A stretch of 64,000 nucleotides of DNA from an uncultured Bacillota bacterium (GCA_947165005.1 CAMUYN010000004.1:1927-65926), one strand, 5' to 3'. Counted from the stretch's first letter, positions 9,417 through 34,876 are shown. Translations and numbers: made by a program. The notes: generated by a model from the sequence alone, not told the origin.

Positions 9417-12400
9417 ATGGAAAATAAAAATAATAATAAAAGAATAGCTATTTATATAGCAGTATTGATTGCGCTTTTAGGGGGCAGTTTTATTATTTAT
9501 AAGATAGCAAGTGCATCTATAAATAATGCAGTTATTAGTAGAATTACTTTGACTTCAATTGAGACAGGTAATAATATTGATCCAGAAGGAGAAGATAATT
9601 TAGTTACTACCTGTGAAAGTGAGGATGCTTGCTTTAGTACATATACTGCATCAAAAGATAGTAGTAAAGAAAATATATTAGTAAAATCTTTTGATAAGAT
9701 TAAATATAATTTTAATTTTAATATTGTGGATTCTTCTGATTCAACACATGATATTGATGATGTAACAATTAATTTGAAAGTAAATCTTTCTGAAGAAGAT
9801 AAGAAATATGTTTCCTTTGATGGCATAAATTGTTCTAATGATGGATTATGCATAATTAGAAATAATAGTTCTTATGAAGCAAGTAATTATTCAGTAACTT
9901 TAAATGTTAATAATGCTCCAAATGGGTATGAGATTAAACCAACTTTTACATTTGATGTTGAAGATAACAAATTAGATACACCTGTAGTACTAGGATACAA
10001 TGAACTAAGTGAAACAAATTATTATTATTCTTATTTAGATGGAACATATTCATTTAATGGACCAGATAATAAAATGCCAACAATTGTTTCATCAAGTGAA
10101 GGAACTATTTCATATGTTTTATATCCAAACTCATCAGATACTAATTTTACACAAGGTGCTAAATATGATGGAAAAGATGGTAGATTTATTACTTATTTAC
10201 TAGGTATAAAAACAGATGGATCGTTATCTGGAACATATTATCCTAGTAATGAAATCACATTCAAAATTAATTTTTCACAAGATAATAGCTTAATACCTAT
10301 AGTACAAGATAATTGGATTAGATTTTATGATAACAATATAGTAGATAGTATAAGACCAATAACTTATAGTTTACCATATAGTATATTAAATTTAGATTCA
10401 GATAGATCAATAAGAAGACCAGGTAATATTTCAATATCAAAAAATGGATATGAAATAAATGTTAAAGTATCTGATTTCGATATTCTTTTAGATGGACCAT
10501 CTAAGAATGCTAATGATACAGACATAGATGGATCATATATATCAACACTTGCTATTACTAATTTCTCACCTAGAGGAGAAGCTGATGGACAAAATGTGAT
10601 TAATAATACAATTACATTATCAACAATTGATAATCAATTAATTGGAACTAGAACTATTGAAAACTCATATGAACAAGTTGCTGTTTCTTCAGGAAACAAT
10701 TTAAATGAGGAAAATAGTGCGGATATAGTAACATCATCTTCTTGGTATGATGAAAGTGAAACTACTCCATTATCACTTAGAAATGGAGGTTCAGGATCTG
10801 TTTCAAAAGGAACAATTGTTAAATATATTACTAAATTTAAAAATAATAAAACTTCTTTAAATAGTGGTTTAAAAGAAGTAATAAAATTTGATACATACGC
10901 CTATAGAGTTCTTCCATATGATACAAATAATGATATTGATATTAGAATTAAATGTGGAACAACAGATTGTAAAAATATATCATCAGATGATTTTGATATA
11001 AAATTTGTAAGTGGCTCTTTTGATTATTTTATTGATGATATAGTACAATATGAATTAAATGATATATCATCACTAAAATTATCAGATAATGATAAATCAA
11101 TTGCTAGTGCATGTTCAAATATTGATTTAACAAGTCTTAATAAAGATCAAATTCAAAATTTATATGGTGGACCATGTATAAAGGCTAAAGATAATATAGA
11201 AACTATATTTGATAAAATAAGTGATGCAACTAAGGTTTCTGGTGATACTGATACAGAAATTCCAATTAGTAAAATAATAGTTCAAACTAAAAAGGGTGTA
11301 ACTTTACCAGATGGAGCAGAAGTAACTGCAATAGTAAAAGCAAGAGTAAGAAATGTGTCTGATTTAACACATAATTATCAAGCAACTACCATGATTTCTA
11401 CATCTGATTATGATAATGAATTATATTATTATGCACCACAAATTAATGAAGCAATATCTAAAGATAACTATATTAAAACTGCATATGTGGGAAATACATC
11501 TATTGATTCTTATGACTTTATTGGAGATTCACTTAAAATAGTTAACTTTACACTTAGACAAAATATTAGTGTTACTAATAAAAATAGTGATGGTTCTTTG
11601 AAAACAAAATATAGAACTACTAATAATGAAATAATTACTTATAAATTAGAAACATCTTTAAGTGATAATAGTATGGATTTACAAGCAGATGATACTTGGT
11701 ATATCAAGAAAATATATACCTATGTATATATTCCAAAAACATTAGAGTATGTTCCTGACGATGGTTTAATTAAACCAGATATGGTTATAGATGATATAAA
11801 TGATACAGTTTTAAAATATACTATTGTTTCTTCTGGAGATAAAATTAAAGCTAATATGAAGATAAAGGATATTTATTTTAAAACTAAATTATCTCCTAAA
11901 TTAAGTGGACAAACAACAAATATAGTTGTCAGAAGTTATCCTGAAGGAGAAAACATTAATGGTGAAATTGATACTACAATAAGAAGTGGTAAGATGGCAG
12001 AATTTACTATTCAAGGAACAGGTATTAATGAAGTAATTGGATCAATATCAACTGGAAATTCCGGATCTGTTATAGAAAAGGATGGAACAATTGATTATGT
12101 ATTAAATGCTTATAATAATACTGGTGATGATGTAAATGATTATAAAATTATTGATGTTTTACCATATAATAGAGATAATAATAACTCTAGTTTTAATGGA
12201 AGTTATTCAGTTAAGATTACTTCTGATTTGGTTAATTTAGATAATATAAAATGTACAAAAGTATCACCAAATGAAATTAATAAAGATAATGATGATATAT
12301 GGAAATCTTGTGGAGATATCAAGAATTCATTTGTTTCTGATATTACAGGAATAAAAATTGATAATATTTCTATTGAACAAGAATCTTCTATGGATGAAAT

Positions 12401-14018: not shown

Positions 14019-14029
14019 AGAGGGATAAT

Positions 14030-14587
14030 ATGAAGATAATAAATAAATATAAAAATCAATTAGTCATAGGAGCAATTACCATTTTAGCTTTAATTGCTTC
14101 TATGATAATATTCTATAAACTAGATAATGATGGAATGAATAATTATGGTATATATAATGTTAAATATAAAGTATATCAAAATAATAAATGGTCTAAATCA
14201 TCAAGAAATGGTATTGAAATAGGAGATAAGATAAATCCTATAAAAAATATAGAAATTAGTACAAAAGAAAATGAAGGTAAAGTATATTTTTATACTTATA
14301 CTAATGAATGGTCAGAACAAACATTTATAAAGGGTGAAAATAATGAAAAAGATATCTCTGGTATAAAAATGAAATTATCTGACAAATTATATAAAAAATA
14401 TAAAGTATGTTATAGAACATATAATAAAAAAGATAAATGGCTTAACTGGGCATGTAGTGGTGAAATAAGTGGAAATAAAAAAGAACCAATAACTGCTATC
14501 GAAATAAAGATTATTCCAAAAAATAGTGTTAAGTTTGAATATCTAAAAGACTATAATAAAGTATTAAACAATAGTGAAAACTTCTAG
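14030..14587 (+). CDS. Membrane-anchored protein with three degenerate ChW-like repeats
   Basis: N-terminal helix LVIGAITILALIASMIIFY. Three Y-x-x-Y/H...W...G...I-x-x-I-x-I units, for example KVCYRTYNKKDKWLNWACSGEISGNKKEPITAIEIKI. It starts 11 nt after the upstream stop and has SD AGAGGG. Confidence 0.5.
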   Translation: MKIINKYKNQLVIGAITILALIASMIIFYKLDNDGMNNYGIYNVKYKVYQNNKWSKSSRNGIEIGDKINPIKNIEISTKENEGKVYFYTYTNEWSEQTFIKGENNEKDISGIKMKLSDKLYKKYKVCYRTYNKKDKWLNWACSGEISGNKKEPITAIEIKIIPKNSVKFEYLKDYNKVLNNSENF

Positions 14588-14598
14588 AGGAGGGCTAT

Positions 14599-17500
14599 AT
14601 GATTAAGAGATTTTTAAATAGAAAGAATCTAAGAATATTTGCATTAATCTTTTCATTAATATTAGTATTAGTTGCAATATATTATATAGATTTAGCAAAA
14701 TTTAATTCTAAACTCGTTAAATATGATAGTAAATATCTAATAAAAGTAACATATTTAATCGGTGATAGAGATAAATTAGATGAAAATATCACAATAGATG
14801 ATACAATTTTTAATAATGATGATTCTATTTTATATAACGCTTCTCAAAGAGTTCCACTTACAAAAAATGGAGATTATTTAGAAGCAGATTTAAGTTCATT
14901 TACAAATAAGATTCTATTAGAACATGTTTCGGATTATGTATTTGCTAATAATAACTTAAATGGTGAAACGGTAGAAGGATGTACTTATGATAAAGAAAAG
15001 AAGGTAATCAGGGTACCATTTAGTTTTTATAAGGATATAGATTCAAAATCAAATACTGCTCCTATTCAAATTGAAATTGAAAGCTTATTAACTAATAAAG
15101 AAATCAAAAATCTTAAGACAGATTATAGTGTAAAGAAATTAATTACATATAATAATACTGCAAGTAATGAACTTATGCAGTTAGATACAAAAATATCATT
15201 ATCTAATTATATTAATAGTGATTTATCTAAAGAAAATGTTTATGTATATTTAAATAATTCAAAAAATAGTTTAGACAAAGATTCATTTGAATATGATTAT
15301 AAAACAAAAACATTAATTATTGATATGCCTGCAATACTTATTAATAAGGTAGATATTAAAATAGGAAATAATATAATTAAAAATGTTTTTGCAGTAACTC
15401 CCGCTCAAATGACAGGATATAAGTTGACAGAAAAGCCACAGAATTTATTAGATTATAACAATTATAGGACTAGAGGTATGGTTTGGTCTGGTTCCTATGA
15501 AGGAGTATCGAATAATAATTTATTATTATATTGTTATGATACTACTACGAGAACTATAGAAGGTGGAAAGCAACAATGTATTGATTTTACTGTTGGTAAT
15601 ACAACATATGGTAAAACTGCAAATGATGCAGTAACAGTGTTTATGTATGATAGATCATATAGATGGACAGGATCAGAATATGCTGTTGCAAATACTCCTG
15701 GTTCATCTGGAGCACAATATAATGGCGATATGTGGCCTTATATGGTAAATACGGGGCATGCAACAATAAATGATGATGGACTAACTTTCTTGCCATTTGA
15801 AGATCCTGATTTATACATATTATTAGAATGTATTCATGATTCTGAAGCCGTAGCAAAAGCTTCAACAGATCCTATCTTTGTTAGAATAGGTATTTCTGAA
15901 GATCATAGCAGTGATAATTACTTAATTTTAAAGGCAACAACAGAAACCAAAGACCGTAACAAAGGTGGCTGGGGTGCTCAAATGGGTAAAGCATATTTTA
16001 AAGTGTATTGGGAAGACTCAACTTGTAAATTACCTGTTTCAAAAACCTTACAGTTAATATCACCTGATAGCACAGATGTTGCAACAGTATCAGCAGGTTT
16101 ATATACTAATAGTACTTGTACTGGTACACCTTTAGAAACAAAAAATATAAATGTAACTTTGGCCGATCAAGCTAGTACTTCTACAACATTTGATACAGAT
16201 TTACAAATTGGGCAAACATATTATTATAATGAAATAGGATTTACTGGACCAGGTGGAGTTAATTTGATGCCAAAATTTAACTACATGAATTGGCCTTGCT
16301 CCGATAGAGTAGCAGCAGATGATGATGGCGATGGATTATGCGATGATCCTGTCAACATGTATAATAATGAAGTGTCATACTGTTATAAAGTGTTTAAAAC
16401 AGATAAGGAGACGGGAAATCCGGTTAGGAATACGACATGGACAATGACTGGTGAAGATGGAGTTGTATATAGTCCAATTGTATTTGAGGAAAATAATAGT
16501 GCAACATTTACGGGTTTACCATATCAAAACTATACATTAAAAGAAACTACAGCTAATCCAGCTGACTTAGATGGAAATTCCAGTTTCGATTACTTTAACG
16601 ATAATGCAGCAGGAGTAACTGTTAATAAAACTAGTTTAACTCTAGAACCAGGCAGTTGTAATTCTACAACAAAAACAGATACTAAAGTATATTATTGTAT
16701 TAAGATAAAGAAAATGGATTATTCAACTGGCGAGGCCCTTGATGGGGCAGAATTTACTGCTACAAAGGGAAATAGGACTATAGATAAAAATAGTTCTGAT
16801 TATAGTTCTTCCAATGGAATTACCTCATTCTTTATAGGAGATAGTTCAACAATTGGTGCTTTCACTATAACTGAAACAGTTGCTCCTCCAGGATATACAA
16901 TTTTTGAAAGCAGCAAAGTAGTTTATCCAGTTGCATTATATGAATATGCAAGCGAAGGTGCTGCAAGAACTGCATGTTTAGGAAATAATACGCTTGCTTA
17001 TGATGGATCATCATTTGCTTCAAAAACATATAATAATGGAACTAACAATTATGTGTTTAGAGAAAAGAGTTATTTAATAAATTGGTATAAGACTGTAGAA
17101 GATGGTACAACAAAAGCTGATGGGGCTAAGTTCAAAGTAAGAAAACAAGGGACAAATCAATTTATAACAGTTAGTGCTCCAGAGAGTACAACTGACGGAA
17201 ATAGTATTAATAAAGCATGTTATCAGTATACAGGTACAAGCGAAACTGGAACAGAGATGACTGCAGGTTCTAAGGGTTCAACTAATATAAATATGACTGG
17301 TGAAGTCTGTGTTGCTGGTTTACCAACTGGAACATATACTATATATGAAACAGAAGCAGCAGAATATCATACTTTTGGTATGACAGATAATATTCATATA
17401 ACAGCAGATGATACATTTAAAGGTATGACTGATGGAAATAAGTTTATTAACTATAGAACTGAATTTGAATTCACTAAAGATGTTGCTTCTGGAGATGAAG

Positions 17501-20500
17501 TAATTAATGGAATGGACTGGAGTAGCATAACTACTGAAGAGTTAAAGCAAATTGCATTTGAAGTAACTACTGAAAACGGAAGTACACCACTTGCATTTAT
17601 TAAAGTTTCTGATGGAGTATATGAATATGTATCAAATGATATTGATTCACCAGCTGTTGTTCCACCAACACCACAATTATATATTGGTGATAATCGTAAG
17701 ATAAAAATATATCATTTACCTAAAGGAAGTTATAAAATTAAAGAGGTAAGAACATGCTGTGATACATCTTGTTCATCTTGCAATGCATCTTCTTGTAGTG
17801 GTTATTATTATCCAGAATATAATCCGGTAGATGACTTTAAATTTGTTATAGATGATTGTTCTTCATCAAATGCTTATGCAACATCATCATGTGGTGGTCA
17901 AATATCTACTGCATATACAACAAATTTACCAACTTCAATCTTACTTACTAAGAGAGATTTGTATGGATATGCAAATAGTTCAAAACCTGTAAAATTTGAA
18001 AATGAGGATGAAGTAAATGCATTTGACAATATAACATTTAGGTTAAAAGATGAAAATGGTAATTATGTTAAACTATTAAGAGTTGATGATTCTGCAACAT
18101 GTTCAAACTTCGGAACTGCAATATATAGATATGTTGATGAATCACTATTAACACAAGCTCAAAGAAATGCATTAACATATGATCTACATACATGTAATGG
18201 TCATATAGAAATAACTCATTTATGTAGAGGAAAAACATATATAATTGAAGAATATTCAGTTCCAAATAATACTGTATTTACAGTACCTGGTGTTCATATA
18301 GAAAAGACATATCAGTTACCGTTTACTGAAGATGGTAAAATGTGTTGTAATGATCATGAAGTAACACCAGTTACTCAGACTATTATTGATGATGAACCAA
18401 CTAGAATAGTTTTATACAAGAAGAATAATAGGACTAGTGATGATATTCACGAAGGAGCAAATAAAAAGGAAACTGCAACTTTTGAGGTATATGCATGTGA
18501 TTTAAATGTTGCAACATGTACTAAGAATCAATCTACTGGAAATAAAATTAAATTTGGAAATCCAATAGTACAAGGAAATGAGACAATTTATCCTGCATTA
18601 TTAGATCAAACAGCATATAGTGGTTATGTAACATCATTAAATCTTACAACTGAAGGTTCACAAGGTAAATTAGTATTAAAATATTTACCTTCAAACTATA
18701 AATATGTTGTCGTAGAAACTAATGCACCAGATGGATATTTTAATGTAATTGGTGCTCTAGCAGAAACTGAAATTGCATCGGTACCTACGAGTACAACTGA
18801 TGCTTCAGCAAATAGAAAAAATATTATTGATTATCCTACAATGATTAAATTCAAAAAGGATGATATTTATAAATATTATAGTAATAGTGATGTAGATCAA
18901 TTAAATTCTAGTAATAAAATCTTTGATACAATGACATTTGTACTAAGAGATAAAGATGGAAACATAGTTAGTCTTAAGAAAGTAGCTGATGGAGAATATA
19001 GATATATTCAAAATGATGGAACTACTACAGGCAATAATGTTACTGAATTACATACTAAAAATGGTGAATTATTAATTACTAATATTTATAGAAATGAAAA
19101 ATACTATATAGAGGAAACTAAATCTGATACAAAAGGTAATTTCATATTACCAAAGAATATTTCAAAACCATCAGGAATTCCTTCTGGATGGAATTGGAAA
19201 GGACATCCTTATGTTGTCTATAACTTAGGTTCTACATTACCAAATGGTTCTCAAGGTGGAACAGTAGCTCCTGAATCATTAACTAGTCTAATTGAAAATA
19301 AACCAACTAGGGTTGTATTTGAAAAGAGAGATAGAACTTCTGGTAGTTTAATTGATGATTCATTAAATAATGAAAAAATAACTTTCAATGTATATAGATG
19401 TCCTAAAACAGTAGAACATTGTAGAGCTAATTCACAAGGAGCAGAACTTGTATATTTTGAAGATAGAGCAGTAATTAATGGTTTAACTGATGATATATCT
19501 TCTGTTACACCACCTGTTTTAACTTATAAGTATAGTAAGACAAATTCTTCAAGCAATAAAGTATCTGATTTAATTACAGATAGAGGAGTATTAGTACTTG
19601 CTTATCTTCCTAGTGATTATAGTTATTCATTATTTGAAAAATCTTCAACTTATGGATACTATAAACCAACTGGAGCAGCAGCATATACAGATTTCACAGT
19701 ATTATCTGAATCAACTGATGAATCTGATTATGTAGATCTAACTGCTTTAGTAGAAAATACACCAACAGGATTAACATTTATTAAGAGTGATTTATATAAT
19801 TATTATACTGAAGACGATTTAAGTGCTATAAAGGCAGAATCATCAAGAATATTTGATTCTATATCATTCATATTAAGAGATAAAGATGGAAATATCTTAA
19901 ATGTAAAATGTACTTCTAATGGAGAAGTTCAAAATAATAAGAATACAAATAATTCTTGTAATACAGGAGAGTATAGATATCTTCCAGTAGATAATAAAAA
20001 CGTTATAAATGTATTGCATACTAAAAACGGTAAATTACAAGTTAATTATTTAAATGAAGGTGAAACTTACTATATAGAAGAAGTAAGTAGTGATGTAGAT
20101 AAATCATTTGTTTTACCTGATTACTTAGATAAAGATTTGAATTATGGTCAACAATTACCATTTGATAATAATGGTCATCCGGTTGTAAAATATATTCTTC
20201 CAAGTGAAATAGATTCTAATCAAGTTTCTGTTACTGCAGAGATAAAGAATATTCCAACTAGAGTTATATTTGAAAAGAGAGATAAAAAATATAATTATTT
20301 AATACCAGATGAAACTACAACATTTGAAGTTTATAGATGTCCTAAAGATAATGGAAATAACACATTGTGTAGTCCAAGTTCTTATAACACAGTAGAGGAA
20401 AGAGAGCAAGCTGGTATGAAGCTAATCAAGTTTGAACCTCGTTCTGTAATTACTAATGATTTAGAAGATCCTGGAATTGAAGTATATAAGATGATGAGTG

Positions 20501-21753
20501 ACAGTACTGCAGAAAATAAAACTATGTGTACTGATACAGTAACTACAAATTGTTATGTTAGTTCTGTTCATCCTTATGTAGGAAGATTAATTCTTAGATA
20601 TTTACAAGCTGATTATAACTATGTGTTATTAGAAACAGTTGCACCAACAAATTATAATTTACCTGTTGGAAGTAGTAGAGAAACTCCATTTAGTGTTGTA
20701 ACTAATACAGTATCAGTTGATGAAGTTGATATTCCAAATAAACCAACAGCACTAATAATAAGAAAATATGCTGATGTTGATGGAGATAGTGAGGCAGATA
20801 GTACAAAACTACTTGGTGGAGCTAAATTTAAAGTATATAAAGTAAATAATTATGATCCTTCTAAGAAAATACAAGATCAAGATAAAGAAATAGTTAAATT
20901 AAAAACTATTAAAGATGGTATATATGAAAATAGACCTGTACTTGATACAGATGTTATAACTACTTGTACAGGTGATAATTGTTCATATAATCCAAATACA
21001 ATTGGTAGTGATATTGAAAGCATAGATGATTTAATAAATGCATCTGGAACAAATATTACATCTGTATTAAAAGAAGGAACAGCATTAATTCAATATTTAG
21101 AATATAATACATACTATATTATTGAAGAAGTAGAAGCCCCAACTGGTTATAGCTTACCAGAAAATGATGATAATAGATTTACACTAGTACATATTAAAGA
21201 AAACGAAACAAAAGTAGTAGATACTTTAAATGCATTAGTAAATAAACCAACATCATTTACATTCTATAAATTTGATGAATATAATACACCACTTGATGGA
21301 GCAACATTCTATCTACAAAAATTAGATAATGAAAAGAAATATAATACTTTAACAGTATCAAAAGAAGTATTAGATAACGGAAAAGTTGTATATCGTTCAA
21401 ATCCTCTTTCAGAAGAAGTAAATATTACAACATCTGGTGGGGAAGCAACAGTATATTACTTAGAACCAGGTCAATATAGAATTCTAGAAGTAAGTGCTGC
21501 AGAAGGATATGAACTTCCTAAGAAAACAATAAATGTTGCTACATTCTTTGTTGATGAAGATGGATTAGTATATGGAAATAATATAATTACTAATAAAAAA
21601 CCATCAGAAACTATTGAGTATTTAGCATCTGATAAAGCAGAATTAATAATTAATATTCAAACTGGAAAAGTAGTTATAAAATATGGATTAATAATTGTAT
21701 TATTAGTCGGAACTATTGTTGGATTAATGATATTATTAAAGAAAAGAAAGTAA
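14599..21753 (+). CDS. 2384-aa surface protein with N-terminal signal-anchor, many SpaA/Cna-B-type (prealbumin-like) domains and a C-terminal NIQTG sorting signal
   Basis: SD GGAGGG. Repeated motif G-A-x-F-x-[VL]...G-x-Y-x-[IL]-x-E-x-x-AP-x-GY, for example LDGATFYLQK...EPGQYRILEVSAAEGYELP. The C-terminus is tripartite. Confidence 0.9.
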   Translation: MIKRFLNRKNLRIFALIFSLILVLVAIYYIDLAKFNSKLVKYDSKYLIKVTYLIGDRDKLDENITIDDTIFNNDDSILYNASQRVPLTKNGDYLEADLSSFTNKILLEHVSDYVFANNNLNGETVEGCTYDKEKKVIRVPFSFYKDIDSKSNTAPIQIEIESLLTNKEIKNLKTDYSVKKLITYNNTASNELMQLDTKISLSNYINSDLSKENVYVYLNNSKNSLDKDSFEYDYKTKTLIIDMPAILINKVDIKIGNNIIKNVFAVTPAQMTGYKLTEKPQNLLDYNNYRTRGMVWSGSYEGVSNNNLLLYCYDTTTRTIEGGKQQCIDFTVGNTTYGKTANDAVTVFMYDRSYRWTGSEYAVANTPGSSGAQYNGDMWPYMVNTGHATINDDGLTFLPFEDPDLYILLECIHDSEAVAKASTDPIFVRIGISEDHSSDNYLILKATTETKDRNKGGWGAQMGKAYFKVYWEDSTCKLPVSKTLQLISPDSTDVATVSAGLYTNSTCTGTPLETKNINVTLADQASTSTTFDTDLQIGQTYYYNEIGFTGPGGVNLMPKFNYMNWPCSDRVAADDDGDGLCDDPVNMYNNEVSYCYKVFKTDKETGNPVRNTTWTMTGEDGVVYSPIVFEENNSATFTGLPYQNYTLKETTANPADLDGNSSFDYFNDNAAGVTVNKTSLTLEPGSCNSTTKTDTKVYYCIKIKKMDYSTGEALDGAEFTATKGNRTIDKNSSDYSSSNGITSFFIGDSSTIGAFTITETVAPPGYTIFESSKVVYPVALYEYASEGAARTACLGNNTLAYDGSSFASKTYNNGTNNYVFREKSYLINWYKTVEDGTTKADGAKFKVRKQGTNQFITVSAPESTTDGNSINKACYQYTGTSETGTEMTAGSKGSTNINMTGEVCVAGLPTGTYTIYETEAAEYHTFGMTDNIHITADDTFKGMTDGNKFINYRTEFEFTKDVASGDEVINGMDWSSITTEELKQIAFEVTTENGSTPLAFIKVSDGVYEYVSNDIDSPAVVPPTPQLYIGDNRKIKIYHLPKGSYKIKEVRTCCDTSCSSCNASSCSGYYYPEYNPVDDFKFVIDDCSSSNAYATSSCGGQISTAYTTNLPTSILLTKRDLYGYANSSKPVKFENEDEVNAFDNITFRLKDENGNYVKLLRVDDSATCSNFGTAIYRYVDESLLTQAQRNALTYDLHTCNGHIEITHLCRGKTYIIEEYSVPNNTVFTVPGVHIEKTYQLPFTEDGKMCCNDHEVTPVTQTIIDDEPTRIVLYKKNNRTSDDIHEGANKKETATFEVYACDLNVATCTKNQSTGNKIKFGNPIVQGNETIYPALLDQTAYSGYVTSLNLTTEGSQGKLVLKYLPSNYKYVVVETNAPDGYFNVIGALAETEIASVPTSTTDASANRKNIIDYPTMIKFKKDDIYKYYSNSDVDQLNSSNKIFDTMTFVLRDKDGNIVSLKKVADGEYRYIQNDGTTTGNNVTELHTKNGELLITNIYRNEKYYIEETKSDTKGNFILPKNISKPSGIPSGWNWKGHPYVVYNLGSTLPNGSQGGTVAPESLTSLIENKPTRVVFEKRDRTSGSLIDDSLNNEKITFNVYRCPKTVEHCRANSQGAELVYFEDRAVINGLTDDISSVTPPVLTYKYSKTNSSSNKVSDLITDRGVLVLAYLPSDYSYSLFEKSSTYGYYKPTGAAAYTDFTVLSESTDESDYVDLTALVENTPTGLTFIKSDLYNYYTEDDLSAIKAESSRIFDSISFILRDKDGNILNVKCTSNGEVQNNKNTNNSCNTGEYRYLPVDNKNVINVLHTKNGKLQVNYLNEGETYYIEEVSSDVDKSFVLPDYLDKDLNYGQQLPFDNNGHPVVKYILPSEIDSNQVSVTAEIKNIPTRVIFEKRDKKYNYLIPDETTTFEVYRCPKDNGNNTLCSPSSYNTVEEREQAGMKLIKFEPRSVITNDLEDPGIEVYKMMSDSTAENKTMCTDTVTTNCYVSSVHPYVGRLILRYLQADYNYVLLETVAPTNYNLPVGSSRETPFSVVTNTVSVDEVDIPNKPTALIIRKYADVDGDSEADSTKLLGGAKFKVYKVNNYDPSKKIQDQDKEIVKLKTIKDGIYENRPVLDTDVITTCTGDNCSYNPNTIGSDIESIDDLINASGTNITSVLKEGTALIQYLEYNTYYIIEEVEAPTGYSLPENDDNRFTLVHIKENETKVVDTLNALVNKPTSFTFYKFDEYNTPLDGATFYLQKLDNEKKYNTLTVSKEVLDNGKVVYRSNPLSEEVNITTSGGEATVYYLEPGQYRILEVSAAEGYELPKKTINVATFFVDEDGLVYGNNIITNKKPSETIEYLASDKAELIINIQTGKVVIKYGLIIVLLVGTIVGLMILLKKRK
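17929..20664 (+). repeat. Three tandem copies of a two-domain (A+B) module, ~300 aa each, inside the 2384-aa protein
   Basis: A copies start at 17929, 18835 and 19762 (PTSILLTKRDLYGY / PTMIKFKKDDIYKYY / PTGLTFIKSDLYNYY). B copies begin PTRIVLYKKNNR / PTRVVFEKRDR / PTRVIFEKRDK. The copies are diverged at DNA level. Confidence 0.8.
21652..21753 (+). other. C-terminal sorting-signal-like tail: NIQTG + hydrophobic helix + KKRK
   Basis: Sequence NIQTGKVVIKYGLIIVLLVGTIVGLMILLKKRK-stop. Confidence 0.65.
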
Positions 21754-21761
21754 GGGATAAT

Positions 21762-22415
21762 ATGGCTAAGAACAAAGTTAAAAAACTTGATAAAAAACAA
21801 ATAATATTCTTATGCGTAGTAGGGATAATAGTCATATTATCCTTACTAGTAATTATTTCTAGTTTGTTTGGAAATTTTGAAACAGTAAAATTAAAGAAAA
21901 ATAATAATGAAATATTTACTATTAAGGATTTAACAATCAATAATCTGAAATTCTTATCAACATCTGAAGAAGTTATAAATGAATTGGGATATCCAAAACA
22001 AACAAAGAAAGTAAAAAAAGGGAAATATAATTATATTGAATATTATTATAAGGGTTTAAAACTAACATTAAAAGAAAATTATAATGACTATGTTTTAACT
22101 GGTGCAGAAATAACATCAAGTAAATATAAGACTAGCAGAAATATAAAAGTAGGAAATAAAGTATTAAAAGTAATTGATAAATATAATGTTGAGAATGAGT
22201 CAGGTAATTATATTTATAAAAATTATACTATTGATGCTTTAAATGATAATTTAGTAAAAGATAATGCTTATTTTAGCTATAGAAATAGTAAAGAAATAAG
22301 ATATTATAATAAAGATGCTGTTATTGAAGGTAGTCCTACAAATCGTGCTGAATTAAGATTTAATTATAGATTTGGTAGAATTAATAAAATAACATGGTCT
22401 TATGATATTAATTAA
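21762..22415 (+). CDS. 217-aa membrane-anchored protein of unknown function (last gene of the operon)
   Basis: Starts 8 nt after the upstream stop with SD AAGGGA. N-terminal helix IIFLCVVGIIVILSLLVIISSLF. I recognise no motif. Confidence 0.7.
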   Translation: MAKNKVKKLDKKQIIFLCVVGIIVILSLLVIISSLFGNFETVKLKKNNNEIFTIKDLTINNLKFLSTSEEVINELGYPKQTKKVKKGKYNYIEYYYKGLKLTLKENYNDYVLTGAEITSSKYKTSRNIKVGNKVLKVIDKYNVENESGNYIYKNYTIDALNDNLVKDNAYFSYRNSKEIRYYNKDAVIEGSPTNRAELRFNYRFGRINKITWSYDIN

Positions 22416-22439
22416 TTTATAAAAAATAAATAAATCTTG

Positions 22440-22468
22440 TTGACAAAAAATATCAGTAATGATATTAT
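22440..22468 (+). promoter_or_regulatory. Promoter of tRNA-Asn
   Basis: TTGACA (22440..22445), a 17-nt spacer, then extended -10 TGaTATTAT (22460..22468). The tRNA starts 21 nt further on. Confidence 0.65.
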
Positions 22469-22488
22469 TGATATTGTCAACAAGGATT

Positions 22489-22564
22489 GCTCGATTAGCT
22501 CAGTTGGTAGAGCGCTTGACTGTTAATCAAGATGTCACAGGTCCGAGTCCTGTATCGAGCGCCA
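22489..22564 (+). tRNA. tRNA-Asn (anticodon GTT)
   Basis: Hand-folded cloverleaf: acceptor gctcgat/atcgagc, anticodon stem cttga/tcaag with loop ctGTTaa, T-arm acagg-tccgagt-cctgt, encoded CCA. Length 76 nt. Confidence 0.93.
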
Positions 22565-22575
22565 TTTTGATATTA

Positions 22576-22600
22576 AAAGAGCCATATGGTTCTTTTTTTT
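22576..22600 (+). terminator. Rho-independent terminator
   Basis: Stem aaagagcc/ggttcttt (one G-U pair), loop atat, followed by a T-run. Confidence 0.6.
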
Positions 22601-22634
22601 CTACTATGATATACTTATATCAAGGAGGATATAT

Positions 22635-22943
22635 ATGAAAGATAAATCTTATTTTGATGGGGGATTATTACAACTTATTGGGTGGAAATTACTTGGAGCA
22701 TTAATAACAACAATTACTCTTGGTATTTGTTATCCATGGGCAGTATGCATGATATATAATTGGGAAACAAAACATACCGTAATTGAAGGAAGAAGACTTA
22801 AATTTACTGGAACAGCAGTAGGTTTATTTGGAAGTTGGATTAAATGGCTATTATTAACAATTATCACTTTAGGTATCTATGGTTTCTGGGTAAATATTAA
22901 AATAAAAAAATGGATTACAAAACATACTGTTTTTGCTGATTAG
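22635..22943 (+). CDS. Small two-helix membrane protein, DUF898/YjgN-like
   Basis: FDGGLLQLIGWKLLGALITTITLGICYPWA...HTVIEGRRLKFTG...IITLGIYGFW...KWITKHTVF. SD AGGAGG. TGaTATACT at 22607..22615. Confidence 0.6.
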   Translation: MKDKSYFDGGLLQLIGWKLLGALITTITLGICYPWAVCMIYNWETKHTVIEGRRLKFTGTAVGLFGSWIKWLLLTIITLGIYGFWVNIKIKKWITKHTVFAD

Positions 22944-22971
22944 TCTAAAATGTAAATATTATCAAAATACA

Positions 22972-23001
22972 TTGACTTTAAAGGAAAAAGTGTGTTAATA
23001 T
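22972..23001 (+). promoter_or_regulatory. Promoter of the T-box/aspS-gatCAB operon
   Basis: TTGACT (22972..22977), an 18-nt spacer, then TGtTAATAT (22993..23001). Confidence 0.55.
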
Positions 23002-23010
23002 ATAGTTGCA

Positions 23011-23250
23011 AAAACGAAGAAAAGGACGAGTATCATACCTTATCATATTAGAGAGTCCTAGATGGTGAAAATGGATTATGATGGATATGTGAAAGAACAC
23101 CTTGGAGTTTATTAACTGAAATTAGTAGGTTAATACGTATATCTGACGTTATAGATCAAAGGTCATTATTTATAATGATGAATTTGGGTGGTACCACGGA
23201 TTTAACAGTTATTCGTCCCTTACATGGGATAAGTAACTGTTTTTTATTTT
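23011..23250 (+). promoter_or_regulatory. T-box riboswitch leader, apparent Asn (AAC) specifier
   Basis: The following elements are present:
- GAGTA (23028..23032) on the 5' side of the specifier loop.
- AGAGAG (23050..23055).
- Distal-loop GGTGAAAA (23064..23071).
- Specifier-loop 3' side TGAAAGAACA, closed by CCTT (23100..23103) pairing with AAGG (23022..23025).
- T-box sequence AATTTGGGTGGTACCACGG (23181..23199).
- Terminator hairpin 23204..23240 followed by a T-run. Confidence 0.8.
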
Positions 23251-23262
23251 ATAGGAGGAAAT

Positions 23263-25020
23263 ATGAAAGAAAATATTTTTAGAACTCATAATAATGGTGA
23301 ATTAAGAGAAAGTGATATCGGAAAGAAAGTAAGATTATCTGGATTTGTTGATACTATTAGAGACCATGGTGGTGTACAATTTGTGGATTTAAGAGATAAT
23401 TATGGTAGAACACAAGTTGTAGTGCATGATGAGAATCTATTAAAAGGAATTTCAAAGGAAACTGTTATTAAAGTAGAAGGAGAAGTAATTAGAAGAGATG
23501 ATGAAACAATCAATGAAAAACTACCTACAGGTTTAGTTGAAGTTGTGTGCGAAAAATTAGAATTACTATCAAATCGTGCTGAACAAATACCTTTTGAAAT
23601 AGATTTAAGTAAAGATACTAATGAAGAAGTTAGACTTAAATATAGATATTTAGACTTAAGAAATCAAGAAGTTAATAAAAACATTAAATTAAGAAGTGAA
23701 TTATTACATTTCTTAAGAAATAAAATGTATGATAATGGCTTTACAGAAGTACAAACACCATTACTTACTGCAAGTTCACCAGAAGGAGCAAGAGACTTTG
23801 TTGTTCCTAGTAGAAAATTTAAAGGAAAATTCTTTGCATTACCACAAGCACCACAAATATATAAAGAATTATTAATGGTTGGTGGTTTTGATAAATACTT
23901 CCAAGTAGCACCTTGTTTTAGAGATGAAGATGGAAGAAAAGATAGAACTTTAGAATTCTACCAATTAGACTTTGAAATGAGTTATGTAACTGAAGATGAT
24001 ATATTAGAAGTTGGTGAAGATATTTATTATGATGTATTTACTAAATTTAGTAATAAAAATGTAAATGAAAAACCATTTAGAAGAATATCATATAAAGAAG
24101 CAATGGATTCTTATGGATCAGATAAACCTGATTTAAGAAACCCTTTAATTATTAAAGATGCTTCAGAAGTATTAAAAAATACTACATTTAAACCATTTAG
24201 TGAATCTGTTATTAAAGTAATAGTAGTAGACAATATTGGAGATAAACCAAATAGTTGGTTTAATGAAGTAGTAGATTTTGCTAGTTCAATAGGTATGCCA
24301 GGTATTGGATATATTACATTACTTTCTGATGGTACATTTAAAGGACCTATTGATAAATTCTTAAGTGAAGAAGAAAGAAGTAATTTAATTAAAGAATTTG
24401 ATATGAAAGAAAATAGTGTTATGTTCTTCATAGCAAATAAGAATAAAAAAATTGCTCAAAAATTTGCTGGTCAAATAAGAGATGAATTAGGAAGAAAATT
24501 AGATTTAATTGATCCTAATAGAATAGAAGTAGCTATCATTAATGATTTTCCAATGTTTGAATATGATGATAAAGAAAAGAAATGGGATTTCTGTCATAAC
24601 CCATTTTCTAAACCTAAATTAGAAGAAGGACAAGATTATGATTTGGCTAACTTAGAAGATATAGTGGCACATCAATTTGACTTTGTAGCAAATGGATTTG
24701 AACTTGCATCAGGTGCTATTAGAAATACTAATTTAGAATTACTTGAAAAAGGATTTGAAAAAGTTGGTTATCCAAAGGGCACATTAGAAAAGAGATTTAC
24801 ATCACTTGCAACAGCATTTAAGTATGGAGCTCCACCACATGGAGGAATGGCTCCTGGTATTGATAGAATTCTAATGATAATTCAAGATGAACCAAACTTA
24901 AGAGAAGTTCAAGCATTCCCATGTAATTCATCTGGACAAGATGCTATGATGGGTGCACCTAGTGTATTAGATGCTAAACAATTAGAGGAACTTGGAATCA
25001 AAATAGATAAGGAGGATTAA
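23263..25020 (+). CDS. aspS: Aspartate--tRNA ligase (bacterial type, probably non-discriminating)
   Basis: Class II motifs FRDED, QLDFEMS and GGMAPGIDR over 585 aa. SD AGGAGG. Confidence 0.92.
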   Translation: MKENIFRTHNNGELRESDIGKKVRLSGFVDTIRDHGGVQFVDLRDNYGRTQVVVHDENLLKGISKETVIKVEGEVIRRDDETINEKLPTGLVEVVCEKLELLSNRAEQIPFEIDLSKDTNEEVRLKYRYLDLRNQEVNKNIKLRSELLHFLRNKMYDNGFTEVQTPLLTASSPEGARDFVVPSRKFKGKFFALPQAPQIYKELLMVGGFDKYFQVAPCFRDEDGRKDRTLEFYQLDFEMSYVTEDDILEVGEDIYYDVFTKFSNKNVNEKPFRRISYKEAMDSYGSDKPDLRNPLIIKDASEVLKNTTFKPFSESVIKVIVVDNIGDKPNSWFNEVVDFASSIGMPGIGYITLLSDGTFKGPIDKFLSEEERSNLIKEFDMKENSVMFFIANKNKKIAQKFAGQIRDELGRKLDLIDPNRIEVAIINDFPMFEYDDKEKKWDFCHNPFSKPKLEEGQDYDLANLEDIVAHQFDFVANGFELASGAIRNTNLELLEKGFEKVGYPKGTLEKRFTSLATAFKYGAPPHGGMAPGIDRILMIIQDEPNLREVQAFPCNSSGQDAMMGAPSVLDAKQLEELGIKIDKED

Positions 25021-25021
25021 T

Positions 25022-25318
25022 ATGAGTAAATTTACCAAAGAAATGGTTGATGATTACGCAGATAAATTATTAATTGGCTTAACACCTGAAGAAAACAAAA
25101 TGGTATTAGATGAATTTGATATTATTGATGAACAAATCAATATTATTAATGATATACCAGGTATTAAAAATGTTGAACCTATGACTCATTGCCTTGATGA
25201 TTTTGAATTTGAATTAAGAGAAGATACTATAGAAGAATCTGTTCCAATAGAAGAATTATTACAAAACTGTGATGAATTCTCTGGAAGAGAAGTAGAAGTA
25301 CCAAAGGTGGTGGGCTAA
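25022..25318 (+). CDS. gatC: Asp/Glu-tRNA amidotransferase subunit C
   Basis: 98 aa, located between aspS and gatA, with a typical acidic GatC sequence (VEPMTH). Confidence 0.85.
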   Translation: MSKFTKEMVDDYADKLLIGLTPEENKMVLDEFDIIDEQINIINDIPGIKNVEPMTHCLDDFEFELREDTIEESVPIEELLQNCDEFSGREVEVPKVVG

Positions 25319-25319
25319 G

Positions 25320-26786
25320 ATGAAATACATGAATAAAAGTATTGAAAAACTTCATGAATTATTAAAGAGTGGTGAAGTTACTTCAAAAGAATTAATCGAA
25401 GAATCATTAAAACTATCACATGAAGTAGAAGAAAAATATAATGCATTCGTAACTATATTAGATGATGCAAAAGAAGTAGAAGTTACAGATAATTTATTAT
25501 CAGGAATACCTTGTGGTATTAAAGATAACTATTCTACTAAAGGAGTATTATCTACAGGAAGTAGTAATACTTTAAAAGATTATGTACCATTCTTTGATGC
25601 AACTGCATATGCTAAATTAAAAGAAGCAGGGGCAGTAATGGTTAATAAAACTGCTATGGATGAATTTGGTATGGGTGGAACAGGTACTACTTGTCATACT
25701 GGTACTGTATTAAATCCATGGGATAAAACAAGAATGTGTGCTGGATCATCATCAGGTTCTGCATGTGCAGTAGCAGCAGGAGTATATCCATATGCTACTG
25801 GATCAGATACTGGAGATTCAATAAGAAAACCAGCTGCATATTGTGGTATAGTCGGATATAAACCAACATATGGAATGATTTCTAGATATGGCTTATTCCC
25901 ATTCGCATCATCATTAGATCACTTAGGAGTATTAACTAGAAATGTTAAGGATGCTGCTATAGTAGTAGATGAAATGAAGGGTATAGATAAAAATGATATG
26001 ACTACTTGGGATTCAAGTAAGATAAATTTAAAGAAATCTTTAACTGGAGAAGTTAAAGGTAAAAAATTATGTTACATAAAAGAATTATGTGATATTAATG
26101 AATATCCAAATGCCTCAAAAGAATTAAAAGAGCATTTAGAAAATTTCTTTAAAGCAGTAGAACTTGCCAAAGAAATTGGTATGGAAGTAGAAGAAGTTTC
26201 AGTAGATAGAACATTACTTAATGCATCAGCATCAGTATATGTTGTTATATCTTGTGCAGAAGCAACTTCTAACATGTCTAACTTAACAGGTATTATATTT
26301 GGACCAAGAAGTAAGGGTTTTGATAACTGGATAGATATGGTTAAAGATTATAGAACTAAAGGATTCTCTTCATTAATAAAAAGAAGATTTGTTATTGGTT
26401 CTTATGTACTACAATCACAAAATCAAGAAAGATATTTTAGAAATGCTCAAAGAGTAAGAAGATTACTTGTTGATGCATGGAAAGATTTATTTAAGAAATA
26501 TGATGGCGTTATATTACCAGTTGGTGTTGGACCTGCTAAACATATTGATGGAGATAAAGATATGCTTACTAATGATTTAGCAACGGTAGCGCTTGATGAA
26601 CACTTACAAATAGGTAACTATGGTGGATTCCCATCAATTACTATTCCAGATGGGTTTATAGATGGTCTTCCAGTAGCTTTAAATATAACAGGTAACTGTT
26701 ATGATGATGAAAATGTTCTTAATATTGCTTATGCCTTAGAAAATGCATTAGGATTTAAGGATCAAATAGCAAAGGAAGGTGAGTAA
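25320..26786 (+). CDS. gatA: Asp/Glu-tRNA amidotransferase subunit A
   Basis: Amidase signature GGSSSGSACAVAAG...GSDTGDSIRKPAA. Confidence 0.92.
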   Translation: MKYMNKSIEKLHELLKSGEVTSKELIEESLKLSHEVEEKYNAFVTILDDAKEVEVTDNLLSGIPCGIKDNYSTKGVLSTGSSNTLKDYVPFFDATAYAKLKEAGAVMVNKTAMDEFGMGGTGTTCHTGTVLNPWDKTRMCAGSSSGSACAVAAGVYPYATGSDTGDSIRKPAAYCGIVGYKPTYGMISRYGLFPFASSLDHLGVLTRNVKDAAIVVDEMKGIDKNDMTTWDSSKINLKKSLTGEVKGKKLCYIKELCDINEYPNASKELKEHLENFFKAVELAKEIGMEVEEVSVDRTLLNASASVYVVISCAEATSNMSNLTGIIFGPRSKGFDNWIDMVKDYRTKGFSSLIKRRFVIGSYVLQSQNQERYFRNAQRVRRLLVDAWKDLFKKYDGVILPVGVGPAKHIDGDKDMLTNDLATVALDEHLQIGNYGGFPSITIPDGFIDGLPVALNITGNCYDDENVLNIAYALENALGFKDQIAKEGE

Positions 26787-26787
26787 G

Positions 26788-28251
26788 ATGGAATATAAAG
26801 TTAAAGTTGGTCTAGAAATGCACTGTGAAATATCAGAAACAAATACTAAAGTATTTTCATCTGCTCGTAATTCATATAGTGTTGTACCAAATGAAAATAT
26901 TAGACCTGTAGATATGGCTTTTCCAGGAATACTTCCTGTTGTTAATAAAGAAGCTGTAAGAATGAGTTTAATGGCTTCTATGGTACTTAATTGTAAGCAA
27001 CCAAAATATATGTATTTTGAAAGAAAAAACTATTATTATCCAGACTTACCAAAAGGATACCAATTAACTCAAAATCCACCAGAAGATACAGTAGGTATGA
27101 TGGGTTATGTTGATTTTGAAGTAAATGGTGAAGAAAAAAGAGTAAGAATAGATAATATACATTTAGAAGAAGATGCTGCATCCTTAGATCACTTATATGA
27201 TGTATCTACGATTGATTATAATAGAGCAGGTGTTCCTCTTTTAGAACTTGTTACTATGCCTGATATATCGTCTGCTGATGAAGCAGTTGCTTTCCTAGAA
27301 CACATGAGATCAGTATATCAATATTTAGGTATATCTGAAGCTGATTCTAAAAAAGGACAAATTAGATGCGATGTTAATATATCTATAATGGATGAATCTT
27401 TAGAAGATATTCCACAAAATTGGGGAACAAAAGTAGAAATAAAGAATGTTAACTCTTTTGGCGGAGTAAGAGATGCAATTATATATGAAGTAAAAAGACA
27501 AACTAAAGCAAAAGAAAATGGCACTTACGATACTGAAATAGAACAAGAAACAAGAAGATGGGATGAAGAATCTGGTACTACTATTAGAATGAGAAGTAAA
27601 GTAGACGCAATAGATTATAAATATTTTGTTGAACCAAATATTCCTAGATTTAAACTTAGTGATGAATGGTTAGAAGATATAAGAAAATCTATTCCAGAGC
27701 TTGCTTATGATAGAAAGAAAAGATATATGAATGATTATGGTTTATCTGAATATGATTCAAATATCTTAGTAAAAGAAAAGAAGATAAGTGATTTTTTTGA
27801 AGAAACTATTAAATTAGGTGCTGATCCTAAAGAAGCTTGTAACTGGGTAAACGGTATGATTTTATCATATTTAAATTATCATTTATTAACAATTGATGAA
27901 ATCTATATAACACCAGAAATGCTTCGTGATTTAATTAAATTAATTGATGATAAAACTATTTCATCAAAACAAGCTAAAGATGTATTTGCTAAAGTCTTAG
28001 AAGAAAAGAAAGAACCAAGAGAAATAGTTAAAGATGAAGGTATGATGCAAATAACTGATGAATCTTCAATAGAAGGTATCGTTGATGAAGTTATCGCAGA
28101 AAACCCTCAAGTAGTGGAGTCTTATGATCCAGCTAATCCAAAAGCACTTGATTATTTTATTGGTCAAGTAATGAAAAAGACTAGAGGAAAAGCAAATCCA
28201 ACAATCGCATATAACATGATGAAAGAAAAACTAGATAATTTAAAAAAATAA
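26788..28251 (+). CDS. gatB: Asp/Glu-tRNA amidotransferase subunit B
   Basis: MEYKVKVGLEMHCE, NRAGVPLLE and a C-terminal YqeY-like tail. ATG 26788 is preferred (SD AAGGAAGGTGAG). Confidence 0.92.
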   Translation: MEYKVKVGLEMHCEISETNTKVFSSARNSYSVVPNENIRPVDMAFPGILPVVNKEAVRMSLMASMVLNCKQPKYMYFERKNYYYPDLPKGYQLTQNPPEDTVGMMGYVDFEVNGEEKRVRIDNIHLEEDAASLDHLYDVSTIDYNRAGVPLLELVTMPDISSADEAVAFLEHMRSVYQYLGISEADSKKGQIRCDVNISIMDESLEDIPQNWGTKVEIKNVNSFGGVRDAIIYEVKRQTKAKENGTYDTEIEQETRRWDEESGTTIRMRSKVDAIDYKYFVEPNIPRFKLSDEWLEDIRKSIPELAYDRKKRYMNDYGLSEYDSNILVKEKKISDFFEETIKLGADPKEACNWVNGMILSYLNYHLLTIDEIYITPEMLRDLIKLIDDKTISSKQAKDVFAKVLEEKKEPREIVKDEGMMQITDESSIEGIVDEVIAENPQVVESYDPANPKALDYFIGQVMKKTRGKANPTIAYNMMKEKLDNLKK

Positions 28252-34846: not shown

Positions 34847-34876
34847 TAATGTGCTATAATCATTATGGAGGTAACT

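Follow-up and report, generated by a model that had tools for sequence, protein, structure and literature searches.

A conserved C-terminal module with an [N/S/T/Q]-[I/L/V]-x-T-G pentapeptide in giant surface proteins of uncultured Firmicutes, a probable variant of the LPXTG-type sorting signal

Sorting signals of the LPXTG type (TIGR01167, PF00746), which are read by sortases, consist of a pentapeptide, a hydrophobic helix and a tail of lysine and arginine (K/R). The pentapeptides of class B signals include NPQTN (Staphylococcus aureus IsdC), NPKTG (Bacillus anthracis), NAKTN and NPKSS (Listeria) and (S/P)PxTG (Clostridioides difficile SrtB). A residue other than proline at position 2 has precedents in LAXTG (class E) and in the NAKTN of Listeria SrtB (PMC8225981). 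Another pentapeptide, NVQTG, has been proposed as the motif of the C. difficile protein CbpA; it was not cleaved by C. difficile SrtB in a Förster resonance energy transfer (FRET) assay (PMC4155245) or in an assay based on high-performance liquid chromatography (HPLC) (PMC4371152), and the current view is that CbpA is probably no genuine sortase substrate (PMC5569036). Here, we describe a conserved C-terminal module with closely similar pentapeptides, NIQTG and QIQTG, that ends two giant surface proteins encoded in a 64,000-nucleotide stretch of DNA (G+C content 26%) from an uncultured gut or rumen bacterium of the Bacillota (GCA_947165005.1, CAMUYN010000004.1:1927-65926; the whole stretch is hereafter called the window). 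To judge from its sequence, this tail is most likely a variant of the LPXTG-type sorting signal in which an aliphatic residue takes the place normally held by proline.

An earlier annotation made from the DNA alone (the sequence-only reading) had reported how both giants end, and its coordinates and sequences are reproduced exactly by translation, as is the tripartite, sortase-signal-like layout of both tails. The genes and their parts are as follows (aa, amino acids).

14599..21753, + strand: gene of the 2384-aa surface protein, which has a hydrophobic signal or anchor at its N-terminus and, towards the other end, five prealbumin-fold domains of the SpaA/CnaB type and the tail module
21637..21753, + strand: tail module 1, AELII-NIQTG-KVVIK-YGLIIVLLVGTIVGLMILL-KKRK-stop (translation, tail logo and AlphaFold2 (AF2) model), made up in order of a conserved upstream strand, the pentapeptide, a juxtamembrane spacer, a transmembrane (TM) helix and a basic tail
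21652..21666, + strand: pentapeptide NIQTG of tail 1, which occupies the LPXTG position
21682..21750, + strand: hydrophobic helix YGLIIVLLVGTIVGLMILL of tail 1, then KKRK (translation; AF2 helix 218-239)
35957..47353, + strand: gene of the 3798-aa surface protein, with CarboxypepD_reg/SdrD_B-like, Flg_new and ALK_LTK glycine-rich domains and the same tail module
47234..47353, + strand: tail module 2, ATVIL-QIQTG-NNKS-IYLLLILLIIIVILGLTAI-KRHKRI-stop (translation)
47249..47263, + strand: pentapeptide QIQTG of tail 2 (translation)

The 3' end of the 2384-aa open reading frame (ORF), 21652..21753, translates to NIQTGKVVIKYGLIIVLLVGTIVGLMILLKKRK followed by the stop, and that of the 3798-aa ORF, 47249..47353, to QIQTGNNKSIYLLLILLIIIVILGLTAIKRHKRI followed by the stop; extended tail peptides comprising the motif and its flanks are AELIINIQTGKVVIKY, AEFIIGPRTGVAVIKY, SDKAELIINIQTGKVVIKY and SSAEFIIGPRTGVAVIKY. 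The hydrophobic helices are 19 residues long and run into KKRK in tail 1 and KRHKRI in tail 2. The 2384-aa protein matches Pfam SpaA (5.8e-44) in five stretches and, weakly, a SpaH/EbpB pilin model, and an exact look-up of the 3798-aa protein returned no match. Three further proteins of the window (1533, 185 and 217 aa) had been said to be devoid of the tail, which their sequences confirm.

Unrelated hydrophobic C-termini may share four residues by chance or through an annotation artefact, and short matches are inflated in an AT-rich genome whose proteins are rich in I, K and N. Among the 39 ORF products of the window, IQTG occurs twice, each time 28-29 residues from the C-terminus, against 0.14 occurrences expected from composition; the probability that at least two proteins carry it within a C-terminal zone of 22 positions is about 2e-5. 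The motif is also kept in every complete homologue. Searched at full length, the 2384-aa protein retrieved 19 proteins, namely itself (100% identity) and 18 metagenomic homologues with 39-62% identity, referred to below as family 1. Apart from P0007, which is truncated, these proteins all end in KAELII[N/S]IQTGK[V/T/I]V[I/V]KYGLII, a helix and KKRK where they reach the C-terminus; the pentapeptide is [N/S]IQTG in each complete member, and the last ~70 residues are conserved far above the rest of the protein. For the C-terminal 214 aa of the 3798-aa protein, five homologues with 45-66% identity were found (family 2). They retain [T/S/Q]-[I/L]-QTG; the endings ATVIL[T]IQTG, ATVIITIQTG and ATLILSLQTG precede the helix and the cluster of basic residues.

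According to the sequence-only reading, the two tails are unrelated in sequence outside the motif; this cannot be upheld, and the signal extends beyond a pentapeptide. When the T of T-G is numbered 0, the tails of both families have in common Ala at -8, hydrophobic residues at -6 to -4, [I/L]-Q-T-G, Tyr at +7 and the register of the helix. Moreover, a hidden Markov model (HMM) built from the tails of one family scores those of the other at a median of 21-26 bits, whereas shuffles that preserve the polar/hydrophobic layout reach 0-4 bits; the two tails are therefore homologous. Their similarity is not a mere by-product of a shared preceding domain, because the tails cross-detect each other while the domains directly before them, compared with hhalign, gave an insignificant result (E=0.012 in a single comparison, probability 3.6%). 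Both tails are copies of one conserved C-terminal module of ~45 residues. The IQTG statistics and the cross-family scores, together with 113 significant database matches, rule out chance resemblance, to which we attach a negligible probability.

These matches come from a profile of eight tails (45 positions) that was run with HMMER against 1.84 billion representative proteins and detected 113 protein clusters at E<=1e-3, including 14 at E<=1e-10, in proteins of 47 to 5708 aa. Enrichment at C-termini, which the sequence-only reading had put forward as a check, is evident at this scale, as in 110 of the 113 clusters no more than a few residues separate the end of the match from the C-terminus. 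A word-indexed protein search with an alignment of 90 tails yielded only three short fragments. The logo of 125 unique tails reads A(114/125)-[E/T]-L-I-[I/L/V]-[N/S/T/Q/G]-[I/L/V]-[Q mostly]-T(125)-G(125)-x-x-[R/V]-[I/V]-[K/P/R]-Y(117)-[G/I]-L-I-I...I...G-L..., then K/R. The consensus of the module is A-[E/T]-L-I-[I/L/V]-[N/S/T/Q]-[I/L/V]-x-T-G, six residues, Tyr, a patterned TM helix and a K/R cluster. In the helix and its flank, Tyr at +7 is present in 117 of the 125 tails, and I+11, I+18, G+20 and L+21 are conserved as well; T-G is followed by 20-38 residues (median 30).

Within the pentapeptide, T-G is found in all 125 tails, and the residue before it varies (Q in 104, S in 10, R in 4, D in 3, I in 2, as well as T and G; 17% are not Q) and behaves like the X of LPXTG. 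The invariance of T-G is not an artefact of the search, since replacing T or G costs 4-6 bits on the profile, about half of the matches have a larger margin than that and no variant was found. Position 1 is most often Asn (62/125), and N or S in 82 tails; position 2 is I, L or V, with Pro in only two. Strict L-P-x-T-G is absent both from the window tails and from the 125 tails, which have N, S, T, Q or G at position 1. The pentapeptides are distributed as follows.

NIQTG: 44 of 125 tails
SIQTG: 11 of 125 tails
TIQTG: 11 of 125 tails
NISTG: 9 of 125 tails
SLQTG: 8 of 125 tails
QLQTG: 8 of 125 tails
NVQTG: 3 of 125 tails
SPRTG: 1 of 125 tails (P0083)
GPRTG: 1 of 125 tails (P0097)
other, rarer pentapeptides: the remainder of the 125 tails

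The two tails with proline, SPRTG and GPRTG, are otherwise homologous to the rest, and in their close relatives the pentapeptide is GIQTG.

No dedicated Pfam or NCBIfam (June 2026) model covers the tails. The only curated family that they match consistently is the generic LPXTG anchor: at E<=0.1, 61 of 90 tails match TIGR01167 and 36 of 90 match PF00746 (Gram_pos_anchor). In nearly every individually scanned tail, the alignment starts at position 4 of the TIGR01167 model, the T, so that T-G falls on T-G. The scores are borderline (14.3-18.7 bits in the tails sampled, for a cut-off of 15.9); tail 2 alone obtains 18.3-18.7 bits on TIGR01167, again from model position 4, and 19.8 bits on PF00746, whose cut-off is 20. 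Models of sortase-B signals matched neither the two window tails (E<=10) nor ten individually scanned tails (E<=0.5), and none was among the 25 most frequent of the 51 NCBIfam families matched by the 90 tails. At the loci examined, no srtB-type gene was seen nearby and no heme-uptake context was apparent. A literature search for IQTG in connection with sortase or the cell wall returned nothing relevant.

The carriers have classic sortase-substrate architectures, i.e., a thioester domain (TED) combined with SpaA domains in the mid-sized proteins, five SpaA domains, and pilin-like structure matches. When the tails were removed and the bodies of at least 200 residues (n=99) were grouped by single-linkage clustering, two superfamilies emerged, one with 69 SpaA-type proteins and the other with 30 family-2 giants. 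The tail was thus not seen on many unrelated body families, and the module is widespread but not promiscuous. Of 67 long carriers that start with Met, 46 score positive by a heuristic for Sec signal peptides (a charged n-region and a hydrophobic stretch no shorter than 12 residues), and most of the long carriers that do not score look like N-terminal fragments; many carriers show cleavage sites of the ..VNA/E type. After the putative signal anchor, each family has a conserved N-terminal motif of its own, IYYIDLxKFNS in family 1 and KYDKYKGL in family 2. The AF2 model of the last 240 residues of the 2384-aa protein has a mean predicted local distance difference test (pLDDT) score of 58, with 70-90 in the last domain and ~76 in the helix (residues 218-239 of the model), which starts at Tyr +7. 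The chain that leaves the domain, including the motif, is predicted with low confidence as a flexible linker that precedes the TM helix and lies outside the last domain. Searches of the Protein Data Bank (PDB) with this model matched pilins and adhesins of Gram-positive bacteria, pneumococcal and enterococcal pilins among them; the matches include the group B Streptococcus 2b backbone pilin, RrgA, EbpC, Clostridium perfringens CppA, SpaD and the B. anthracis TIE protein, all of which we take to be sortase substrates.

All carriers originate from metagenomes or metagenome-assembled genomes (MAGs). None of ten hit clusters that were checked has a source name, which suggests that they include no protein from a cultured organism. 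A scan of genome contigs located family 1 in just two GTDB species, 'MAG: Bacillales bacterium Tb.RUG.455' and 'uncultured Firmicutes bacterium'. The related loci, denoted here by L numbers, have G+C contents of 23-28%, and sporulation genes are present on L027.

The tail would be processed by a divergent sortase encoded elsewhere in the genome; we put the probability of this reading, which draws on analogy, at roughly 0.6. The adhesin would be exported by Sec and then held in the membrane by the C-terminal helix and the K/R stop-transfer tail. The pentapeptide [N/S/T/Q]-[I/L/V]-x-T-G, about six residues outside the bilayer, would be presented to a membrane-anchored sortase, which would cut between T and G and transfer the protein to peptidoglycan or to another subunit. 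The enzyme would be encoded outside the window and would probably be divergent and unclassified, like that of the homologous operon in L008. The conserved flanks (A-E-L-I-I upstream and x-x-[R/V]-[I/V]-[K/R]-Y-G-L-I-I downstream) may serve as extra specificity determinants. Cleavage, the identity of the enzyme and attachment to the wall are thus put forward by analogy with known sortase systems.

Besides its existence, C-terminal position, conservation and carriers, the module is characterized by an occasional linkage to sortase genes. A search of 28 sequences totalling 522 kb found such genes only in L008 and L012.

L008 10991..14752: gene of a 197-aa sortase, followed by the genes of a WG_beta_rep protein and of two N_methyl (type IV pilin-like) proteins
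L012 356..2525: gene of a 163-aa minimal sortase (LMTC), which overlaps the 3' end of the gene of a 567-aa SpaA-domain protein

The L008 sortase (PF04203), in which the His, TLVTC and Arg are present, is encoded directly after the homologue of the window's adhesin operon, the four-gene module described below. It lies outside the defined classes: its best match is class C of NCBIfam, with 51.9 bits for a cut-off of 160, and no srtB model is matched. Its closest solved relatives are PDB 4D70 and 2KW8, presumably class D-type enzymes. The second small sortase gene, in L012, is located 3 kb upstream of the gene of a tail-bearing 4487-aa giant. Its overlapping neighbour ends in VTMPITSKESNLAYLIMILINSVGYAFIKKYN (...MPITS-helix-KKYN), which is substrate-like, of an xPxTS type and distinct from the IQTG module. 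Two sortases in ~0.3 Mb of non-redundant flanking DNA would, as a rough estimate from a small sample, exceed the typical genomic density of ~0.3-1.3 per Mb. The proposal made in the sequence-only reading, an xIQTG-type signal read by a sortase or another processing enzyme, is partly supported, namely by the layout, the C-terminal enrichment, the T-G register on the LPXTG_anchor model and the sortases at L008 and L012; its claim of unrelated tails and the precedent that it cited are not borne out.

Several observations weigh against processing by a sortase. There is no sortase in the 64-kb window, as the sequence-only reading had predicted, and none within ~10 kb of the tail-bearing genes in eight lineages (L002/6, L007, L018/19, L020-23, L025, L026 and L027). 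In L008, the tail beside the in-operon sortase has the Pro-containing GPRTG, not IQTG. Tail 1 does not match TIGR01167, obtains 11.8 bits on PF00746 and stays under the cut-off of every LPXTG model. In contrast to classical signals, the ~8 residues upstream of the pentapeptide and the whole juxtamembrane and TM segment are conserved in sequence across families. The N-termini of both window giants (14599..14720 and 35957..36080) are hydrophobic and resemble uncleaved signal anchors with no obvious cleavage site. To our knowledge, no characterized sortase accepts an aliphatic or beta-branched residue at position 2. Finally, the sole experimental data on a near-identical pentapeptide, NVQTG, are negative. 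The sequence-only reading had cited acceptance of NVQTG by C. difficile SrtB as a precedent; this is wrong, for the peptide was left uncleaved in two independent studies (PMC4155245, PMC4371152). The substrate of the HPLC assay was the bare pentapeptide Abz-NVQTG-Dap(Dnp) (PMC4371152), and B. anthracis SrtB depends critically on the residues that flank the pentapeptide on either side (PMC11987632); the negative result is therefore not decisive for a module with conserved flanks.

Some of these observations would be explained if the tail were an uncleaved C-terminal membrane anchor, in which the conserved motif and the Tyr/Gly pattern serve structure or packing instead of recognition by an enzyme, e.g., as a juxtamembrane strand or in helix-helix contacts with the small single-pass partner proteins. 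Such an anchor would account for the lack of a sortase in the window and near most loci and for the failure of the C. difficile sortase to process the NVQTG protein CbpA in vitro. Moreover, sortase signals do not usually show position-specific conservation in the TM helix, which is a typical feature of specific TM-TM contacts, and the family-1 genes are always flanked by genes of two conserved single-pass membrane proteins; however, the giants of family 2 have the same tail without these small partner genes. An absolutely conserved T-G whose neighbour varies freely is characteristic of a scissile or recognition site, not of packing, and the motif lies in a segment predicted to be flexible. In addition, the Pro variants SPRTG and GPRTG suit a sortase motif, and a sortase is encoded in the L008 operon. 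On this balance, we consider a mere membrane anchor unlikely, and processing by a sortase remains the preferred explanation.

The tail might also be sorted by a membrane protease or transpeptidase other than a sortase, such as the CPBP protein of the window, by analogy with MrtX, MrtS and MrtJ, or an enzyme of a kind not yet recognized.

34865..35851, + strand: gene of a 328-aa CPBP/Rce1-like intramembrane glutamic protease (Pfam Rce1-like, 2.2e-18) with intact EExxxR, FxxxH and HxxxN

This gene, whose product has intact catalytic motifs, lies 105 base pairs directly upstream of the 3798-aa gene on the same strand, and the protein bears a weak similarity to MrtS (27.8 bits, cut-off 130; 2.5e-6) and MrtJ (22.9 bits, cut-off 75; 1e-4). 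A long conserved module that includes the TM helix is closer to X-CTERM domains than to generic LPXTG signals, the tail has no curated model of its own, and in C. difficile the related motif NVQTG is an orphan. However, the CPBP protein remains far under all Mrt cut-offs and scores higher on the generic ABC_perm_CPBP and on MroQ, although the latter is also far below its cut-off. The adjacency is confined to the window: neither L012, the only further family-2 locus that is informative, nor any family-1 locus shows it, and no CPBP homologue was detected by tblastn in the other 27 loci. CPBP genes are abundant as paralogues in Firmicutes, which counts against this protein as the sorting enzyme, and the T-G register of the tails fits LPXTG models. 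Conserved adjacency to tail-bearing genes, by which the CPBP protease was assessed as the sorting enzyme, was thus not found. The protein may be regarded as a weakly supported candidate for an alternative processing enzyme, and sorting by a non-sortase enzyme in general appears quite improbable.

The tail-bearing SpaA gene of the window belongs to a conserved four-gene module, which encodes a TM protein of ~170-195 aa (faintly ChW-like), the SpaA giant with the tail, a TM protein of ~214-228 aa and an SdrD_B giant of ~1520 aa without the tail. It is present in the window, L002/L006, L007, L008, L009, L020-23, L025 and L026, in an order that differs between loci, and L027 has three of the four genes (those of the SdrD_B giant, the SpaA protein and the ~220-aa protein).

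Window 9417..22415: four-gene module
L008 943..10888: four-gene module
L020 3870..15215: four-gene module
L025 1534..20947: four-gene module
L026 1063..12203: four-gene module
Window 9417..14018, + strand: gene of the 1533-aa SdrD_B-domain giant without the tail (Pfam SdrD_B, 5.7e-16), the first module gene in the window
Window 14030..14587, + strand: gene of the 185-aa single-pass membrane protein, a module partner with a faint ChW-like match
Window 21762..22415, + strand: gene of the 217-aa single-pass membrane protein, a module partner, directly after the tail-bearing 2384-aa gene
Window 22635..22943: gene of a 102-aa DUF898-type small membrane protein, which in the window, L002-L004 and L006 is conserved as the next gene after the adhesin module

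The gene of the SdrD_B giant adjoins tail-bearing SpaA genes in L002, L006-L009, L020-23 and L025-27, and its product has a conserved C-terminus, ...RPV[I/V]x[I/V]SxxNII[L/A]E. Counterparts of the 185-aa protein occupy the homologous position in L008, L009, L020-23, L025 and L026. Searches with the two small module proteins gave no clear match to a family or solved structure, apart from the faint ChW similarity of the 185-aa protein. That the 217-aa protein is a cryptic sortase was considered and rejected, as its sole Cys lies in the TM segment, the alignment contains no invariant His or Cys and no family or PDB entry is matched; an AF2 model from the single sequence (pLDDT 42) was uninformative.

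Some loci differ from the window in the genes around the module. In the close relatives L002 (16188..23231) and L006 (13560..20615), the 216-aa gene is followed by that of a second tail-bearing SpaA giant, a paralogue of 2347-2351 aa. The window lacks this paralogue, and the DUF898 gene comes next there. L006 also encodes, between the DUF898 gene and aspS, two tandem secreted proteins of 976 and 1029 aa (21195..24125 and 24211..27300) that have cleavable signal peptides, no TM anchor and a common C-terminal motif, PDILSIINGD[D/N]AF...LPTLK[A/V]FN; they too are absent from the window. Elsewhere in the window, 48584..49483 and 49496..50653 encode tandem paralogues that have a zinc-ribbon motif (MNCKNC...CPxCG) at the N-terminus and diverge in their C-terminal parts.

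A wider proposal, which we regard as tentative and somewhat doubtful, is that the tail forms a self-contained, previously undescribed sorting domain, 'AELIxNIQTG-CTERM', whose occurrence would be limited to uncultured Firmicutes of low GC content in the rumen and gut. A dedicated enzyme outside the six recognized sortase classes would read it, either a new clade of L008-like sortases or a non-sortase such as CPBP, and the NVQTG tail of CbpA would be an outlying member. If the tail is a genuine sorting signal, it provides a searchable marker for the surface-adhesin repertoire of poorly known uncultured gut and rumen Firmicutes, whose tail carriers, many of them very large (up to ~5700 aa), are currently annotated as 'hypothetical' or as borderline 'LPXTG'. 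The sequence space of sortase-type signals would then be widened to aliphatic residues at the 'Pro' position, and conserved flanks and the TM helix would become part of the signal, which bears on sortase specificity and on sortase-based protein engineering. The tail also gives a handle on the anchoring of the NVQTG-bearing collagen adhesin CbpA in C. difficile, and a profile built from the tails would allow the cognate enzyme to be sought by partial phylogenetic profiling.

Among known systems, the CPBP-dependent X-CTERM domains (MYXO-CTERM/MrtX, Synerg-CTERM/MrtS and JDVT-CTERM/MrtJ) resemble the module in being dedicated conserved domains composed of a motif, a TM helix and a basic cluster, and in the window a CPBP protease gene adjoins one target gene. 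However, the motifs are different, JDVT-CTERM matches one of 90 tails (E=0.017), the 25 families most often matched by the 90 tails do not include the Synerg-CTERM and MYXO-CTERM models, the window CPBP protein falls under all Mrt cut-offs and its adjacency is not conserved. SpaA-type operons for sortase-assembled pili share the SpaA domains with the window but, unlike the operon of the window, contain a class C sortase gene, and the L008 sortase scores below the class C cut-off. CbpA (CD3145) is alike in its NVQTG, which is nearly identical to NIQTG and is itself found in three of the 125 tails, the likeness being established for the pentapeptide; it is unlike in that its NVQTG peptide is left uncleaved by the single C. 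difficile sortase.

Closer parallels exist among the sortase signals. Class E LAXTG and Rumino_NPXTG (NF033846) demonstrate that lineage-specific sortases read pentapeptides deviating at positions 1-2; the residues are different from those of the tails, and Rumino_NPXTG gave only a partial match of 13 bits with one of ten individually scanned tails. Class B signals differ from the tails, in which position 2 is aliphatic and beta-branched, but agree with them in the commonest residue at position 1 (Asn, 62/125) and in Gln at position 3. In Listeria NAKTN, Pro at position 2 is dispensable, and the SPRTG and GPRTG tails carry a motif of the (S/P)PxTG type read by C. difficile SrtB. Finally, although the tails have [N/S/T/Q]-[I/L/V] at positions 1-2 in place of L-P, they agree with the LPXTG signal in the tripartite succession of a pentapeptide ending in T-G, a hydrophobic helix and a K/R tail, and in their position, right at the C-terminus of adhesins that are exported by Sec and composed of CnaB/SpaA and thioester domains.

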